IMG/VR virus record: IMGVR_UViG_2541047885_000001
Source: a virus
Taxonomy: Duplodnaviria; Heunggongvirae; Uroviricota; Caudoviricetes
DNA length: 21,692 bases
Reading direction: 5' to 3' (one strand)
Under the pieces are notes generated by a model, which was not told where the DNA came from, did no database searches, and saw only the letters and a program-made list of their open reading frames with translations. The translations under genes and the position numbers were made by a program. Below are positions 152 to 21,612 of the stretch, one piece after another (position 1 is the stretch's first letter; each line of letters opens with the position of its first letter).

Positions 152-331
152 ATGCGAAACGAAAAATTGCAGATGCGTAGAGCGCAAGCTGCCGCAAGAC
201 GTTCTTTCAATGGAAGCGTAGAGTACGTAAAAGTTACTATGACAAAAGATCACGCAAGTCGCGTATCCCGCGCTTTCTTTGATTCTCGTAACAATAAGGA
301 AAATTATGAGTTCGTCTGCGTCGCAGAATGA
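152..331 (+). CDS. Candidate small basic protein (59 aa), first gene of a possible two-gene cargo module; below the ORF-track length cutoff
   Basis: ATG at 152 with GAGGT 8 nt upstream; open frame to TGA at 329..331; overlaps the start of the downstream ORF by 26 nt in another frame. Arg/Lys-rich translation (MRNEKLQMRRAQAAARR...). Confidence 0.25.
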   Translation: MRNEKLQMRRAQAAARRSFNGSVEYVKVTMTKDHASRVSRAFFDSRNNKENYEFVCVAE

Positions 332-851
332 TAAAAATCAAATTGTCAGATATAAGGGTCGAGTATTGCATACGCAAAATTTCTCGGCCCTTTGTGCATC
401 TGATCTTGAGCTGAAGAAAGTATCTGATGCCTTTACCCAGTATTGGAAAACGGGATACCATCCATCTCTTGGTAAAGATGCTGCATTTGCTCGTCCGACA
501 GAAATGCTTAAACTAAATGTCAGGCATACTCATGTCGATAACCAAGACTATATTCCAGAAGATAGTGATAAAAAACACACTGGTAAAAAATCATCTTGGG
601 ATGCATGGAAAAATATAGCGTCTGTGCAAGTAAAATGCATACCAACAAGTGATTGCTTTTTAGTTTATTCGGTAAATCACAATCGTGATGCGCTGGTTAT
701 GTTTTTTGTTGACGCAGATGCCCACAACATAACTGAGCAAGAAGAGTTTAAAGAGGCAGCAATCACTATCAGTTATCAATTCTTTGAGAAAACAAAAACA
801 GAACCAATGCCTTTAGAAGAAGATCTTTTTTCTGATAAATGGAAGGAATAG
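306..851 (+). CDS. Hypothetical protein (181 aa), low-GC cargo gene; no family recognised
   Basis: ORF-track frame 279..851; ATG at 306 preceded by AAGGA at 296..300. Roughly 38% GC against about 50% in flanking phage genes. Followed directly by an intrinsic terminator. Confidence 0.6.
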   Translation: MSSSASQNDKNQIVRYKGRVLHTQNFSALCASDLELKKVSDAFTQYWKTGYHPSLGKDAAFARPTEMLKLNVRHTHVDNQDYIPEDSDKKHTGKKSSWDAWKNIASVQVKCIPTSDCFLVYSVNHNRDALVMFFVDADAHNITEQEEFKEAAITISYQFFEKTKTEPMPLEEDLFSDKWKE

Positions 852-1154: not shown

Positions 1155-1188
1155 GCACATCCCTGTGCCGCCGTTCTGTCAGAAGAAC
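1155..1188. repeat. Right arm of the 34-bp inverted repeat; overlaps the last codons and stop of ant
   Basis: Exact reverse complement of 1..34; the ant stop codon (1179..1181) lies inside the arm. Confidence 0.85.
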
Positions 1189-2123
1189 CCTGCTTTGTCG
1201 TTGATATACTCCGCGTGCGTCTGGATATCACGCAGGCATTTGCTCACACCGACGATGTAGCAGAACATGGTGGTCAGCTCCGCCGCCGCGCCCGATACAT
1301 CGTGCCCGTCGTCCTGCAACTGGTTTAGCAGATTCATCAGCAGTGAGTTCTCCGTCAGGCCGAGAACACCAGACGGAGAATGAATCAGGCTGCGGTAGCC
1401 GGGCTTCAGCGGATAACCATAACATTTTGTCTGTGTTTTAATTGCCTCACGAAGCGCATCTAACATCTTGACTGCCACTTCATCATTCTCTGATGCAGAT
1501 CCAGCAGGGAGATGCTCCCCTTCAAGCGGAACCCGAGCAACAAGAGACAACGCTTCGGCGAATTGATCTTCATCAATTTCTTTGTACGAACAGCCAAAAT
1601 GAGATTTCAGTGACGACCACATGGTGATCATCGCCTTAGCCTGTTTTTCTTTTGGCAGAGACTGACCGCGACTCATGACGAGTTGTTTAATGGCTTCCTG
1701 CTGTTCAGTGGTTATTTTACCCGGCAACGCCTTTTTAGCTTTGCGTGGGTTAACCACATGGCCTTTAGTCCAGTACTCGTAGAGCACATCGTCACACTCT
1801 TCCTGATACTGGATTACCTTGTCGCGGATTTCAGGACGGACTTTGTTAGGGCTGATGGTTTGCAACCAGCCAGCAAGTTTGCGAAGTGCCAAACAAATAA
1901 TCTCACGGCGCTGTTCATCCCCAGGAAGCTGCATTGTGATTTTCACAATGCAGGTTTTAAACCGCTGCTTCATTTTCGTAAACTGTGAAGCCCAATCCAT
2001 ACCCATGCCTTCAACGATAGGTTTCATTGGGGTGTACGGTTCTCCGTTGTGATTGACAACATAAAGTTCTGCGCCGTGGAATGGCACGTTGATAGTAGAT
2101 ACCGCTGTTGCTATACTCGTCAT
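1179..2123 (-). CDS. ant: Phage antirepressor (Ant-like), 314 aa
   Basis: Sits downstream of an Arc-like gene and divergent from an Mnt-like gene, as in P22 immI. N-terminal region looks like antirepressor N-domains; size close to P22 Ant (300 aa). Confidence 0.75.
   Translation of the reverse strand: MTSIATAVSTINVPFHGAELYVVNHNGEPYTPMKPIVEGMGMDWASQFTKMKQRFKTCIVKITMQLPGDEQRREIICLALRKLAGWLQTISPNKVRPEIRDKVIQYQEECDDVLYEYWTKGHVVNPRKAKKALPGKITTEQQEAIKQLVMSRGQSLPKEKQAKAMITMWSSLKSHFGCSYKEIDEDQFAEALSLVARVPLEGEHLPAGSASENDEVAVKMLDALREAIKTQTKCYGYPLKPGYRSLIHSPSGVLGLTENSLLMNLLNQLQDDGHDVSGAAAELTTMFCYIVGVSKCLRDIQTHAEYINDKAGFF
2089..2117 (+). promoter_or_regulatory. Sigma70-like promoter antisense to the ant 5' end (candidate Psar)
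   Basis: TTGATA (2089..2094), 17-bp spacer, TATACT (2112..2117); predicted start near 2124, opposite the ant start codon (2121..2123). Confidence 0.45.
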
Positions 2124-2197
2124 GTCGTTAATTCCTATACGTAGTTTTACGATACTGAAGCCCTGACGGTCTGGCCACCGTTGGGCTTCGCTGTTTT
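2124..2197 (+). ncRNA. Candidate sar-like antisense RNA (~70-75 nt) covering the ant start codon and RBS
   Basis: Runs from the antisense promoter to a plus-strand hairpin (GAAGCCC 2157..2163 paired with GGGCTTC 2183..2189, inner ACGGT/ACCGT stem) followed by a T-rich stretch. Complementary to the ant SD (2133..2136) and ATG. Architecture parallels P22 sar. Confidence 0.4.
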
Positions 2198-2363
2198 ATG
2201 CCACGCTATTCTTCTCACCAGTGAGTCCATACACTTTCCTCAGCTGATAGATAATCTCTGTATTGAACTTTCGGCATTCTTTTTCGCCATTTCTTTCAAT
2301 AGCTAACTTCACATCGTCCGGAAAACGAACTCGTCGTTGACACATCTCTTTTGCTTTTTGCAT
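2196..2363 (-). CDS. arc: Arc-like ribbon-helix-helix repressor (55 aa from ATG 2363; the ORF track extends to a TTG at 2399)
   Basis: ATG at 2363 with AAGGAG 7 nt upstream. Translation matches the Arc pattern (basic N-terminal beta strand, RVRFPDDV..., NTEIIYQL). Lies immediately upstream of ant. Confidence 0.8.
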   Translation of the reverse strand: MQKAKEMCQRRVRFPDDVKLAIERNGEKECRKFNTEIIYQLRKVYGLTGEKNSVA

Positions 2364-2378
2364 TTCATATCTCCTTAG

Positions 2379-2447
2379 CCCCACCGTGGGGCAAAACAAT
2401 TGTCACACCGTGCGTCATTGATGTCAAGCACACGGTGAGGCATACTT
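2379..2447. promoter_or_regulatory. Divergent Pant / Pmnt promoter region with three candidate operator heptamers
   Basis: Minus strand: TTGACA (2427..2422), 17 bp, GACAAT (2404..2399). Plus strand: TTGATG (2418..2423), 17 bp, CATACT (2441..2446). CACCGTG at 2382..2388 and 2406..2412, and its inverse CACGGTG at 2431..2437; near-palindrome CCCCACCGTGGGG at 2379..2391. Confidence 0.5.
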
Positions 2448-2483: not shown

Positions 2484-2915
2484 ATGAGCAGAGAAGATCC
2501 ACAACTAAGGATCAGACTTCCCGTTGAAGTAAAAGAAAAAATAGAAATTTCTGCAAAAGCCAATAAGCGATCAATGAACGCTGAAATAGTACAACGTCTT
2601 GACACCAGCTTTCTGAAAGATATTCATGAAGATGACGTAATTTCTGCTTATGAAGCAAAAATTATTGCAAACAATGCACGACATGAAATATTAAATATTA
2701 TTTTCAAAAGAACCTTTAATGAAATTAATAAGAAAATAACACTTGGACATACAAGTTTTTATATAAACCTTAATGACCTTGAACTGGAATCACTTGCAGA
2801 TAATGATTACCAGATCATCTTTGAAAAAACATTTAATAAGCTCAATGAACTAGGTTACATCATCTGTGAAAACTCATGGGATGCAGATGGTTTTGGAATT
2901 GAAATACCTGAATAG
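2484..2915 (+). CDS. mnt: Mnt-like RHH repressor (143 aa) with an unrecognised ~95-aa C-terminal domain
   Basis: ATG at 2484 with GGTGA 5 nt upstream. N-terminus (DPQLRIRLPVEVKEKIEISAKANKRSMNAEIVQRL) closely resembles the P22 Mnt DNA-binding domain as I recall it. C-terminal domain contains an internal repeat. About 30% GC. Confidence 0.8.
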   Translation: MSREDPQLRIRLPVEVKEKIEISAKANKRSMNAEIVQRLDTSFLKDIHEDDVISAYEAKIIANNARHEILNIIFKRTFNEINKKITLGHTSFYINLNDLELESLADNDYQIIFEKTFNKLNELGYIICENSWDADGFGIEIPE

Positions 2916-16305: not shown

Positions 16306-17981
16306 TGTGATTGCCCACCCTGACCACTAACTGCATTCGCCATAGCTGACAAAACACTCGGATCCGAAGTTTTAGCTTCGCTTAGCGTCTTGGCACCCTG
16401 TGCCGCCGCCATCCCCATCGCCATCATTTGTTGCTGCTGTTGTTGCTGTGCCCGTTGCTGGCGAGCCTGCTCAACCTGTTCCTGCGGAACAATGACGGTT
16501 GGAGACACTCCGGACATATCAGCGAATGCATCGATCGCCTGATCAACGTTGAGTTTGTCGAGAGCTTCTGGTTTCGCTTGCGCAAGTTGACCAATGAAGT
16601 TAACCGTGGACGCCAGACTGGACAGGCCGATAGACTTCTGCGCCTGAGCCATGACGGAAATGTATTCGACCTTCAGGGGCATACCTTCCATCGCGTCAGG
16701 CGGTGGCGGCAGCATGTTTTTACGCACCATCATCGAGAAAGCGCGGTCAATGAGAGGATTAAGACATTCGTCGTTCAGACGCTCCAGAACCGGCCCCAAC
16801 ATCAGAAGTTTTTCTTCTTTCATTTCGATCACCGCTTCAACAGGCATCGAGCGGGTATTGATGTTCTGCAACATCATGAACAGATCGACAAAGTAGGCGC
16901 TGTTAATGATTTGACGGGTGTCCTGAATGTCTGCCACCAAATCTGCTGTACTGGGGTTAACCAGATAAGCAGGCCTGAAACCATCCTGACCAGTAATCTG
17001 ATCGATATACGTGATGTCGCCAGGAAGAAGGGAGGCACGCTGATTCTTGAGGGAAGTCGGAGCAACCATCGGCGGATTGGTGGCTTTATCAATCAACTGC
17101 GACTTGCGCTTCTGGAGAAGCTGCAATGCCTTAACAGGTCCAAGCGCCAGCATACCCGGGCATGATGATCCATAAACATCTTCGCCGTTAACTTCCCAGC
17201 GCGGAGCCATAATTGGAAACTCATCGAATCCGGACTCACGCAACAACTTGTCGTTATCGCCACCAACCTCGTAATAAACCGATTTGAATGGCTTGTTCTT
17301 GCTATCCAGCTTCGATGTATCGCGGTCAATGTTCGGGTAAACCGAATGCATCACTTCAATCCACTTCTCGTAGGTTCCGCTTTCCCACATGCTTTTTACG
17401 GATTCGCTGACGTTATTTAGCCCGAACTCCTGAACAAGCTGACGAACAGTCATAGAGAACTTGCGAAAACAGGTGTCCACACTGCCACGAGGTGAGTTAG
17501 CCAGGTAGTAACTGCCTATCGGGAATGGCATTGTGCGAATGATGTCCTCGTCATCCTCCAGCACTGCCATTGCACCAGTGCTGTATGTGCCGAGGCTTCC
17601 GTATAACTGCGGCAGCGACTGATAGAGATTCGACTTATTGAACATATCGTTCATGCGGTTCTGCACCGCCTCAAGCCACAACTTAACAGGGCCATAATCC
17701 ATCATTTCAGGATCTGGCGTAGCCAGGCGAAACCACGGACGCGCGGGGCTTGTGATGCCTGACATCATGCCGCTGGCGAGAGTGCGCGCCGCCATAGTCC
17801 CGGTCGAATCAATAATGCGTGTATTGCGTCGATCGTTACGGTTGACCTCAGAAGTCAGAAAGCGGGAACCACGCGGGTTGATGTAATCACTCAACTCGCG
17901 CCAGTGCGGCTCGAACGACTGACGCTCGCTTTCAAGTTGTGCGAACTGTTTGTTCAATCGCTCTTTAGTTGTTTCCGCCAT
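16302..17981 (-). CDS. Portal (head-to-tail connector) protein, 559 aa
   Basis: Size and position typical of a T7 gp8 / epsilon15-type portal; RBS GGAG 8 nt upstream of the ATG. Confidence 0.9.
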   Translation of the reverse strand: MAETTKERLNKQFAQLESERQSFEPHWRELSDYINPRGSRFLTSEVNRNDRRNTRIIDSTGTMAARTLASGMMSGITSPARPWFRLATPDPEMMDYGPVKLWLEAVQNRMNDMFNKSNLYQSLPQLYGSLGTYSTGAMAVLEDDEDIIRTMPFPIGSYYLANSPRGSVDTCFRKFSMTVRQLVQEFGLNNVSESVKSMWESGTYEKWIEVMHSVYPNIDRDTSKLDSKNKPFKSVYYEVGGDNDKLLRESGFDEFPIMAPRWEVNGEDVYGSSCPGMLALGPVKALQLLQKRKSQLIDKATNPPMVAPTSLKNQRASLLPGDITYIDQITGQDGFRPAYLVNPSTADLVADIQDTRQIINSAYFVDLFMMLQNINTRSMPVEAVIEMKEEKLLMLGPVLERLNDECLNPLIDRAFSMMVRKNMLPPPPDAMEGMPLKVEYISVMAQAQKSIGLSSLASTVNFIGQLAQAKPEALDKLNVDQAIDAFADMSGVSPTVIVPQEQVEQARQQRAQQQQQQQMMAMGMAAAQGAKTLSEAKTSDPSVLSAMANAVSGQGGQSQ

Positions 17982-19471: not shown

Positions 19472-20947
19472 TTAAGCATAGGGATCGTAATCTGTGATGG
19501 CCTTGCCTTGCTGGTTCTGCTGACCGGGAATTCGCAGACGCTTCGACACAGGGAACGCAAACGTCAGCAGTAGCGCATCGCCTTTACCCGGCGAACGCCC
19601 AAGCCGCTCCTTGATATCCTCCTTCGGTTCGATAACGATTTTACCGTCCACGCGAACTTTGTACTCTGCCGCCGACAGGTCGTCTGCAGTTTCCTGGTCA
19701 TCCAGCATGCCGCCCAGCCTCAGCCATGTCTTACATGAGTTGAACATCTCCCCACGCTTGTTAAGCATCTGCGGGTCAGTAGACGCGCCACCGAACGGAA
19801 CAAGTTGCCATGTACGACCCCAGCCGTCACCGATTGACTTCAAACCGGTTCCGTAACCGAAGTCGATGAACACCGCGTCAGCCTGATACTGGTCTTCAAA
19901 GTCAGCGATACGCTTCGCCATAATCAGATCGTCGGTAGTCTTGTTGCCAGTCCACAGCACCTTACTGTGTAGCCCCTGCCGCAGGTATATCACAGCGTCA
20001 TCAACGCCGGAGTATGCCGGGTCAACGCCGATTATCACCGGAGCATGTGCAACCTGCGCAGCGGTTACCACCAGTTTCATTGCCTCGTCAGTAAGACCGG
20101 TAGGGATAAACTGCAATTCAGATGCATCAGGGAATATGCCACGCACACGGATTTTAACGAAGTCGCTATCTTCCCCGTAGTCATCAACCCATTTCTGCAA
20201 CTGCTGTTTGTTGGTGCCTTCCACCGTCCTGCTGTCAATCTGCGCAGTTTTCCAGCGGTGTTTGTATTTGCGGAAACATTCACGGAAACGCCCGGTGTTA
20301 CGTGTAGGGTTTCCGAAAGCCACCCAGATAATCTCAGTGTCTTCGTCCGTTAGCGCACCCTCGGCAACTTCCCACACCAGATCCGCAATGTTCGACGCTT
20401 CATCAAATACCACGATGATGCGTTTACGCTCGTTGTGTAGTCCGGCGAATGCCTCAGTGTTGTGCTCAGACCAGGGGATTGCGTCAGCTCGCCACCGCTT
20501 GTCGTGCCCAGGGTCATTGCTGTACATCGCGGTAGCGGTACAGGTAAACCAGTCTTTCGTGATAGCAAGGTTTGACCACTTGATAATTTCCGGCCAGGTC
20601 TTCGTTCGTAGCTGGTTGTCGGTGTTGGCGGTCACCACGACCTTACAATCCTCGCAAGTGGACATGCCCCAGTTGATCAGCATTGAGATGAATGCGGATT
20701 TACCAATACCGTGACCAGAAGCACGTGCCAGCATAAGCGGCTGATATCGCGTCTCTGGATTCTGCAGGTGATCACGTATCTCTCGGAACGCATCAGCCTG
20801 CCACTGACGTGGGCCGGTGGCATGTGCCAGTTCAGTCCCCTCTTCCCCCCATGGGAACGCATAGAGGGCATAGCCAAGCGGATCGTGAGTGAACCCTGCA
20901 ATATCCTCGATTAACTGCTCTTCAGGAGATAACGCTGTATCTGTCAC
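19472..20947 (-). CDS. Terminase large subunit (491 aa)
   Basis: Walker A-like ARASGHGIGKS, Walker B-like IIVVFDEAS, and a C-terminal nuclease-like region (IIGVDPAYSG); ATGA overlap with the terS stop. Confidence 0.92.
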   Translation of the reverse strand: MTDTALSPEEQLIEDIAGFTHDPLGYALYAFPWGEEGTELAHATGPRQWQADAFREIRDHLQNPETRYQPLMLARASGHGIGKSAFISMLINWGMSTCEDCKVVVTANTDNQLRTKTWPEIIKWSNLAITKDWFTCTATAMYSNDPGHDKRWRADAIPWSEHNTEAFAGLHNERKRIIVVFDEASNIADLVWEVAEGALTDEDTEIIWVAFGNPTRNTGRFRECFRKYKHRWKTAQIDSRTVEGTNKQQLQKWVDDYGEDSDFVKIRVRGIFPDASELQFIPTGLTDEAMKLVVTAAQVAHAPVIIGVDPAYSGVDDAVIYLRQGLHSKVLWTGNKTTDDLIMAKRIADFEDQYQADAVFIDFGYGTGLKSIGDGWGRTWQLVPFGGASTDPQMLNKRGEMFNSCKTWLRLGGMLDDQETADDLSAAEYKVRVDGKIVIEPKEDIKERLGRSPGKGDALLLTFAFPVSKRLRIPGQQNQQGKAITDYDPYA

Positions 20948-21543
20948 TGATTGCCATCCTGACGTTCTTTCAGTCTCTTCCTGGCTGCCGCTATGCGATC
21001 AGCAATTGTCACATTCACATTAACATCCAGGCGTTCTTTGAATGCGTTGACGTCGACGTGCTTACCAATCAGTTCGAGGTTCTTCACCTTGTCAGGCCAT
21101 TTAATTTTTTTGAGGATGCCAACCAGCTCTTTCTCGTCTCCACGGCCTTCGAACATGTCGGCCAGTTCGAAACCTGTCAGGTACTGCCGCCAGACCTTAG
21201 GCCATTCCGAGACCGGCTTGATGCTCATATCGTCGTTGAGAATGTCAATCACGTCCATCTGGTCGATCTCCACCAGGCGCATGAGAACGTAATCAGCACT
21301 GACGCGCATTCGTTTGTTGCGCTCCTCCATCAACTCGGCAATCCGTTTCTGAATGCGTTCATCGCGCATCATGACACTGGCTTTAACTGCCGCTGTATTT
21401 GGGGAGAATCCTGCATTAATCGCAGCCTGAGTCTGGTTTTCAGGCGTTTTGATGTATGACTGGCAATAAGCCTCCTGCATTGCTGTTAGTGGCTTAAATT
21501 GCGTTGATTTGCGTTTATAGGTTTTAGGTTCAGCAGGCATCAT
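20944..21543 (-). CDS. Terminase small subunit (~199 aa from the ATG at 21543/21540; the ORF track extends to TTG 21588)
   Basis: Immediately upstream of and coupled to terL; N-terminal region has a terminase small subunit-like pattern (LTAMQEAYCQSYIKTPENQTQAAINAGFSP). GGTGG lies 5 nt before the second ATG. Confidence 0.8.
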   Translation of the reverse strand: MMPAEPKTYKRKSTQFKPLTAMQEAYCQSYIKTPENQTQAAINAGFSPNTAAVKASVMMRDERIQKRIAELMEERNKRMRVSADYVLMRLVEIDQMDVIDILNDDMSIKPVSEWPKVWRQYLTGFELADMFEGRGDEKELVGILKKIKWPDKVKNLELIGKHVDVNAFKERLDVNVNVTIADRIAAARKRLKERQDGNQ

Positions 21544-21550
21544 AACCACC

Positions 21551-21579
21551 GTGGTAATAGTTACCGTTGTGGTAATAGT
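21551..21579. repeat. Direct repeat GTGGTAATAGT x2 (7-bp spacer) in the terS 5' leader
   Basis: 11-mer at 21551..21561 and 21569..21579, between the upstream terminator and the probable terS start. Confidence 0.5.
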
Positions 21580-21584
21580 ACCAT

Positions 21585-21612
21585 GCAAAATAAAGCCGCC
21601 ATAGTTGGCGGC
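21585..21612 (-). terminator. Intrinsic terminator upstream of terS
   Basis: GCCGCCA-TAGT-TGGCGGC hairpin; on the minus strand it is followed by TTTATTTT. Confidence 0.5.

Follow-up and report, generated by a model that had tools for sequence, protein, structure and literature searches.

The immI region of phage P22 and its two repressors, Arc and Mnt, are textbook models of RHH-DNA recognition and of antirepressor control. In the P22 record, the mnt operator (AGGTCCACGGTGGACCT) lies just after the -10 element of the promoter Pant, and the arc operator (ATGATAGAAGCACTCTACTAT) lies in the Pant spacer. Other RHH proteins, such as MetJ on its met-boxes, the omega repressor on its heptads, CopG and AmrZ, place a beta-sheet in the major groove and recognize short dyad-related repeats with several dimers. 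General background on RHH proteins is given in PMC3325190. The published half-site of P22 Mnt is GTGGACC; it is bound by the tetramer, and its most specific position is G3 (PMC2726951).

Here we analyzed a control region of this kind in a 21,692-nucleotide stretch of viral DNA (IMG/VR record IMGVR_UViG_2541047885_000001, Caudoviricetes; hereafter the window). Judged by its sequence, the locus is a P22-immI-type module consisting of ant, an arc-like gene, a sar RNA and a divergent mnt-like gene. The gene set and its order are those of P22: ant, an upstream small gene that is putatively of the RHH type, sar, and a divergent mnt-type RHH repressor. The antirepressor gene ant (1179..2123, minus strand, 314 aa) matches the Pfam family P22_AR_N (PF10547, E 9.6e-45), and its counterpart is annotated as Ant in Escherichia phage TL-2011b. 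The arc-like gene (2196..2363, minus strand, 55 aa) lies directly upstream of ant on the same strand. The Mnt-like repressor gene (2484..2915, plus strand, 143 aa) encodes an N-terminal RHH domain that starts SREDPQLRIRLP. Between the arc-like gene and ant, the plus strand carries a putative sar-like antisense RNA (2125..2192), which was detected with the Rfam model RF00262 (45.2 bits against a gathering score of 43, E 9.8e-8). This RNA has a folding z of -3.3 and a terminator-like hairpin at 2168-2187 (+), and it was left unannotated in the TL-2011b record.

By its sequence content, the host prophage belongs with the TL-2011b-like (Uetakevirus-like) podoviruses and not with the P22-like ones. 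The closest phage is TL-2011b itself, with 96.8% identity over 2.5 kb. TL-2011b has been discussed alongside the phiV10 and epsilon15 group (Uetakevirus), and the one functional study found for a phage of the TL-2011b group is confined to its main repressor and an antirepressor (PMC9782041). When the control region served as a DNA query against the phage collection, TL-2011b was the only match, and relatives were therefore reached through proteins. Across 5,426 complete E. coli genomes, the module was found in 44.

The TL-2011b sequence (L001 4390-4420; also L007) carries an extra G at about codon 10 of the mnt-like gene (AAGGGATC versus AAGGATC). The extra base cuts the mnt-like product to 14 aa, and the record annotates a shorter downstream "hypothetical protein". 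The frameshift reflects either genuine loss of the maintenance repressor or an error in sequencing.

A cassette made of ant, the arc-like gene, three operators and the mnt-like gene is also present in E. coli CFSAN018748 (L004 1529-3187, 75% identity). There it sits between lambda-like tail genes, namely those for minor tail protein L and a C40 peptidase, whereas the cassette in the window is flanked by podovirus genes. The cassette therefore appears to be mobile across unrelated phage types, as a moron.

The intergenic region between the two repressor genes contains the heptamer CACCGTG at 2382-2388 and 2406-2412 (both plus strand) and its complement CACGGTG at 2431-2437, which confirms the positions given in the first-pass annotation. 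The whole window has six copies of CACCGTG where 2.6 are expected, and nine of 100 shuffles reach six, so that taken alone this number is unremarkable. Three copies inside 56 bp, the cluster found here, occurred in none of 300 dinucleotide-preserving shuffles. Because triple clusters of any heptamer arise in about 32% of shuffles, the cluster still needs biological support.

Each heptamer appears to span the dyad of a 15-17-bp candidate operator of the same type as the P22 mnt operator. The first of these, O1 (2377..2393, AGCCCCACCGTGGGGCA), has its dyad at 2385 and holds a perfect 15-bp palindrome, GCCCCACCGTGGGGC, at 2378-2392. The second, O2 (2401..2417, TGTCACACCGTGCGTCA), has its dyad at 2409 and six of eight symmetric pairs, and the third, O3 (2426..2442, AAGCACACGGTGAGGCA), has its dyad at 2434 and four of eight symmetric pairs in the window. 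Read outward from the dyad, the half-site is G1 T2 G3 n G5 n C7 A8 (GTGnGnCA). All six half-sites start with GTG, and the outer half-sites found in the window are GGGC, CGTC, TGAC, AGGC and TGCT. When we searched the window with the 17-mer TGNCNCACNGTGNGNCA, allowing up to two mismatches, O1, O2 and O3 were the only matches; the remaining CACCGTG copies (14751, 19382 and 21547) showed no match to the 17-bp motif within two mismatches.

These observations change how the heptamers are to be read. The first-pass annotation had taken them for half-sites, but each is instead the centre of one ~17-bp dyad operator with two half-sites. It had also described the third copy as inverted, which is uninformative because CAC-N-GTG is its own reverse complement except for the variable middle base. 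The spacing of 24-25 bp that it reported stands (24 and 25 bp from centre to centre in the window), but its equation with two helical turns does not. The distance amounts to about 2.3-2.4 turns, and neighbouring sites therefore lie on different faces of the helix.

The operators lie over two predicted promoters. The Pant-like promoter (2399..2427, minus strand) consists of a -35 element TTGACA (2427..2422), a 17-bp spacer and an extended -10 element TGtGACAAT, with the -10 hexamer at 2404..2399. It has 10 of 12 matches in the promoter scan, with the TG present. It is oriented such that it would drive the arc-like gene and ant, and an equivalent is seen in the relative L004. The Pmnt-like promoter (2418..2446, plus strand) was read by eye as a -35 element TTGATG (2418-2423), a 17-bp spacer and a -10 element CATACT (2441-2446). 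It scores 8 of 12 in the window, one match under the scan threshold. Relatives carry CATAAT, and at the equivalent place in L004 the scan picks TTGAAG-17-CATAAT with a score of 9 of 12. The -35 hexamers of the two promoters overlap back-to-back.

O1 is located about 6 bp downstream of the Pant -10 element and, given the promoter fits, would therefore cover the expected Pant start site. O2 lies within the Pant spacer and abuts or overlaps the extended -10 element. O3 lies within the Pmnt spacer; it reaches two bases into the Pmnt -10 element and shares two bases with the Pant -35 element. An overlap of the heptamers with the -35/-10 elements of both predicted promoters had been noted from the start, and it is roughly borne out, by O2 for Pant and by O3 for Pmnt and Pant.

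To assess conservation, we used 63 viral loci recovered by protein-based searches, which together with the window and L004 gave 27 distinct arc-mnt intergenic sequences (Arc-like identity 62-100%). The three sites are kept in all 27. Mean column identity across these regions is 0.82 for O1, 0.996 for O2 and 0.95 for O3, the conservation of O2 and O3 being confounded with that of the promoter elements that both sites overlap; the O1-O2 spacer reaches 0.59 and the mnt leader 0.56. The Pmnt-like promoter is also conserved in this alignment. Both O1 and O3 vary most at the central base, which can be C, G, T or A; such freedom is expected of an unread position at a dyad. O3 takes the form of a perfect palindrome, CCCCAC-N-GTGGGG, in most clades. 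The clade of the window is the exception, with a perfect O1 and a degenerate O3.

The O2-O3 spacing is 25 bp throughout. The O1-O2 spacing is 24-26 bp in the 27-region set and reaches up to 28 bp in distant relatives, and this variability counts against strict helical phasing. Phasing by two helical turns was rejected because 24-26 bp are not integral turns and because O1 and O2 are 24 to 28 bp apart, depending on the relative.

Comparison with P22 separates one familiar operator from one that is missing. O1 and the P22 mnt operator have the nine-base core CCAC-N-GTGG in common. The operator centre follows the Pant -10 element by 15 bp in the P22 mnt operator and by 14 bp in O1, and both sites are found at the same distance before the arc start codon. 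The Pant spacer, the location of the arc operator in P22, contains O2 here. Direct reading of 2395-2446, however, revealed none of the TAGA/TCTA boxes of the 21-bp P22 arc operator, and the position is taken instead by O2, a Mnt-type site. The first-pass annotation had considered the sequence unrelated to the P22 operators; this remains true of the arc operator, given the absence of TAGA, but fails for the mnt operator, given the common CCAC-N-GTGG. By gene content, sar and the mnt-operator-like O1, we assign the locus to the P22 immI kind, with the arc-operator feature missing.

Although the immI kind itself is known, the locus departs from P22 in operator number, promoter layout, specificity and the C-terminal domain of the repressor. 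The three operators here are of one sequence family, whereas P22 has one mnt operator and one unrelated arc operator with TAGA boxes. The predicted promoters are back-to-back, with overlapping -35 elements and starts expected near 2392 (-) and 2453 (+), ~61 bp apart, whereas those of P22 are interleaved, with starts ~37 bp apart. The outer half-site is GGGC here and GACC in P22, and the beta-strand carries Q/R here and H/N in P22, which we read as a different specificity within the same type. Unlike in P22, the Arc-like protein has Mnt-like recognition residues. The C-terminal domain of the Mnt-like protein (~90 aa) also differs from the coiled coil of P22 Mnt.

The Mnt-like protein matches the Pfam family Arc (PF03869, E 1e-14), its best PDB match is 1mnt (E 4e-7), and the N-terminus of its AF2 model (pLDDT 80.7) matches the Arc-operator complex 1par with a probability of 0.99. 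The C-terminal domain (window 2634-2915, residues ~50-143) shows 58-66% identity across Enterobacterales. It is modelled (~55-143, pLDDT 80-90) as one long helix and an alpha/beta unit, and a Foldseek search of the model against the PDB returned no match for this domain at E <= 0.001. According to the model, this domain replaces the coiled coil of P22 Mnt. As for its role, oligomerisation and ligand or partner binding are guesses. That each operator takes a tetramer (two RHH dimers) is an assumption by analogy, since this domain neither resembles the P22 coiled coil nor matches a PDB entry.

The Arc-like protein gave no Pfam match, its profile found only weak matches to Arc in the PDB (best E 0.36), and its AF2 monomer model (pLDDT 56) was too poor for a fold search. 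The assignment of an RHH fold therefore rests on an hhalign match, in register, between the Arc-like and Mnt N-termini (79.9% probability, E 1.4e-5). The beta-strand of the Arc-like protein, QRRVRF (QRKVRF in relatives), is in register with QLRIRL of the Mnt-like protein, and both strands carry Q, R/K and R at the recognition positions. It is therefore plausible that the two proteins share sites. The N-terminal arms of the two repressors differ (SREDP versus QKAKEMC).

The sites appear to track the Mnt-like protein. For instance, the divergently encoded partner has different strand residues in L093-L095 (H.V.R or K.M.R), and the partner in L097 is an excisionase-like gene, not an RHH gene, and in all of these loci the three sites are still of the Mnt-like type.

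We extended the comparison with a scan of one genome per species, using a four-sequence alignment as the query, which recovered 80 further loci. Sites were counted for 42 Mnt-like genes with the arm M-x-R-x-x-P/T, as occurrences of CAC-N-GTG within 135 bp upstream. Of these Arg-arm genes, which are from Proteobacteria, 26 have at least three sites, eight have two, six have one (P22, SE1 and four others) and two have none. Because the sites were collected by the CAC-N-GTG pattern, G1, T2 and G3 are constant by construction. We take the real signal to be that nearly every Arg-arm gene has CAC-N-GTG sites.

Half-site position 5 varies with beta-strand residue 8. It is G in 122 of 124 half-sites where the residue is R, T in 39 of 42 where it is K, T or A where it is N, and C where it is M; these loci are related by descent and fall into about five residue classes rather than hundreds of independent events, so the counts overstate the number of independent events. 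The Mnt of phage SE1 (strand QFNLRLP) has the upstream site AAGACCACGGTGGTCTT. In the Q.R.R family, the invariants are T2 G3. G5. C7 A8, a set that is symmetric about G5. O2 keeps T2, G3, G5, C7 and A8 and deviates at positions 4 and 6 only.

One subfamily has a KQTDP arm, with no Arg and with Q.K.R kept. Here the inner triplet changes from GTG to TAG while the outer GGT stays, giving sites of the form ACCTA-N-TAGGT. This subfamily has three sites too, with a -35 hexamer between the second and the third. The KQTDP-arm loci (L104, L108, L109, L112, L114, L117, L119 and L133) come from Alphaproteobacteria and Chromohalobacter. Since these sites change on the inside only, the inner triplet would follow the arm and the outer bases the beta-strand. 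The KQTDP and CAC-N-GTG subfamilies can be read as a natural specificity-swap series, in which we infer the residue-to-base contacts from the co-variation. Together with the position over Pant and Pmnt and the match to P22, this co-variation supports the earlier proposal that the sites are operators for the flanking RHH repressors.

In Xenorhabdus bakwenae (L082), O1, ~100 bp upstream of the mnt-like gene, is TGTCACACCGTGCGTCA and thus identical to O2. In Mixta mediterraneensis (L084), O1 is a perfect 19-bp palindrome, TCGTCACACGGTGTGACGA, with O2-class half-sites. The recognition residues of both proteins are unchanged in these two loci despite the O2-class O1, which is explained by none of the models that we considered.

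We consider it likely, with a probability of about 0.65, that 2377-2442 is an immI control region with three Mnt-type operators that are bound by the Mnt-like repressor, and that the Arc-like protein probably acts on the same sites. This reading draws on the sites themselves, their symmetry and conservation, the match to the P22 mnt operator and the co-variation with the N-terminus, all of which were observed. In a lysogen, Mnt-like repressor made from Pmnt would occupy O1 (at the Pant start) and O2 (at the spacer and extended -10 element) and turn Pant off. Transcription of arc and ant would then be blocked and the antirepressor would stay silent. At a higher concentration, the Mnt-like repressor would also occupy O3, at the Pmnt spacer and -10 element, and limit its own synthesis. 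When Pant fires, the Arc-like protein would feed back on the same control region, probably through the same sites, O2 being the positional equivalent of the P22 arc operator. The sar RNA would act on the ant mRNA, as in P22.

The pseudo-dyad of the half-site at G5 suggests that each half-site takes one RHH dimer. Two dimers would then sit ~10 bp apart, as P22 Mnt does on GTGGACC, and the P22 half-site is likewise symmetric, with GGACC centred on A5. The symmetry of the half-site would thus fit the geometry of the dimer. From sequence comparison we infer the remaining elements of this scheme, namely binding, the assignment of proteins to sites, the ranking of affinities, the start sites and the oligomeric state.

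A division of labour closer to that of P22, in which the Mnt-like protein binds the GGGG-class sites O1 and O3 only and the Arc-like protein alone binds O2, seems unlikely to us. The half-sites of O2 (GTGTGACA and GTGCGTCA) would then form a separate specificity class, and yet O2 keeps all the invariants of the half-site and differs only at positions 4 and 6. The position of O2 in the Pant spacer, where the P22 arc operator sits, speaks for such a division, as do the different arms of the two proteins (SREDP and QKAKEMC). O2 is also near-invariant in sequence, including its central base, and fixed in orientation, unlike O1 and O3, and this could mean a different binder. A further point in its favour is that the only clade with an altered Arc-like strand (C8 and R11 for Y8 and K11) is also the only clade with an altered O3, which may mean that at least one site is read by the Arc-like protein. 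The O1 sites of Xenorhabdus (L082) and Mixta (L084), however, are O2-class with unchanged beta-strand residues, and in distant loci the three sites follow the Mnt-like protein even where its partner is different or absent, neither of which fits an O2 reserved for the Arc-like protein.

It is far less probable that the heptamers are constrained only as parts of the promoters, or that they are bound by another factor, such as the main repressor of the prophage or a host protein. O2 and O3 do overlap -10/-35 elements, and the whole of 2401-2446 is highly conserved, but the hexamers lie mostly outside the heptamers, and O1, which is outside the -35/-10 hexamers, is nevertheless a conserved palindrome with a free centre. 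Such an explanation also does not predict that the sites change alongside the recognition residues and the arm of the Mnt-like protein across distant bacteria. We give next to no credence to the palindromes being RNA hairpins, for instance with O1 forming a stem-loop at the 5' end of the arc-ant mRNA. A Pant start near 2392 would place O1 within the transcript, and GCCCC/GGGGC is a possible 5-bp stem, but the natural O1 variants GCCTCAC...GTGGGGC and GCCCCAC...GTGAGGC break the pairing on one strand or the other without compensation, and conservation is highest in CAC and GTG, which would have to form the loop. For both promoters, the predicted start lies downstream of O2 and O3. The hairpin reading was rejected for the lack of compensatory changes and because two of the three sites precede the predicted starts.

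Operators for the Mnt-like repressor, probably used by the Arc-like protein as well, also invite comparison with lambda OR (OR1-OR3, PR/PRM, CI and Cro), where three related dyad sites lie between divergent promoters. This likeness is functional only. As in lambda OR, repressors are encoded on both sides, here apparently with common recognition residues. Unlike in lambda OR, the proteins are RHH and not helix-turn-helix proteins, the spacing is 24-26 bp, and the sharing of sites is suggested by sequence. The layout also differs from those of MetJ, omega, CopG and AmrZ, in which the repeats abut and adjacent dimers are cooperative, whereas here three separate 17-bp sites lie ~25 bp apart.

A bolder version, which we regard as possible but put forward only tentatively, is a lambda-OR-like switch built from RHH proteins. 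The paralogous Mnt-like and Arc-like proteins would compete for the three operators with opposite orders of affinity, which would make Pant and Pmnt bistable. If this were true, the widespread design would be one with three operators, and the P22 layout with its two unrelated operators would be a special case derived from it. There would also be a recognition code for Mnt-type RHH proteins, in which the Arg of the arm reads the inner GTG and residue 8 reads position 5.

The locus itself suggests that the pairing of one mnt operator with one arc operator, as found in P22, is not the common arrangement. The usual design in the sampled relatives, from enterobacterial prophages to Alphaproteobacteria, is a set of three Mnt-type operators over back-to-back promoters. 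Our literature search found no description of these operators or of the three-site layout. The co-variation of arm, beta-strand and operator provides specificity rules that are directly testable by single-residue swaps. Through the antirepressor, the module would control prophage induction in E. coli lineages, among them those with EHEC-associated TL-2011b-like prophages. We see its main value in the natural recognition code and in the hint that the two-operator design of P22 is an exception.

Elsewhere in the window, direct repeats (ACCACCGTGGTAATAGT and ACCGTTGTGGTAATAGT) are found at 21541-21580, just upstream of the start of an ORF (20944..21588, minus strand). The ACCACCGTGGTAATAGT repeat contains the palindrome CCACCGTGG, which resembles the SE1 and Q.K.R class Mnt-type sites. 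It does not match the 17-mer of the present family, TGNCNCACNGTGNGNCA. The cluster test returned other heptamer triples, CGGAAAC x3 and CAGCAAC x3 (12-bp period), at 20271-20309 and 16430-16454; both clusters fall within long ORFs and probably reflect repeats in coding sequence. Beside the immI module, an ORF at 279-851 (+) encodes a YafO-type toxin domain (Pfam E 1.2e-5, just above the cut-off), and its counterpart in TL-2011b is annotated as a YafO family toxin.
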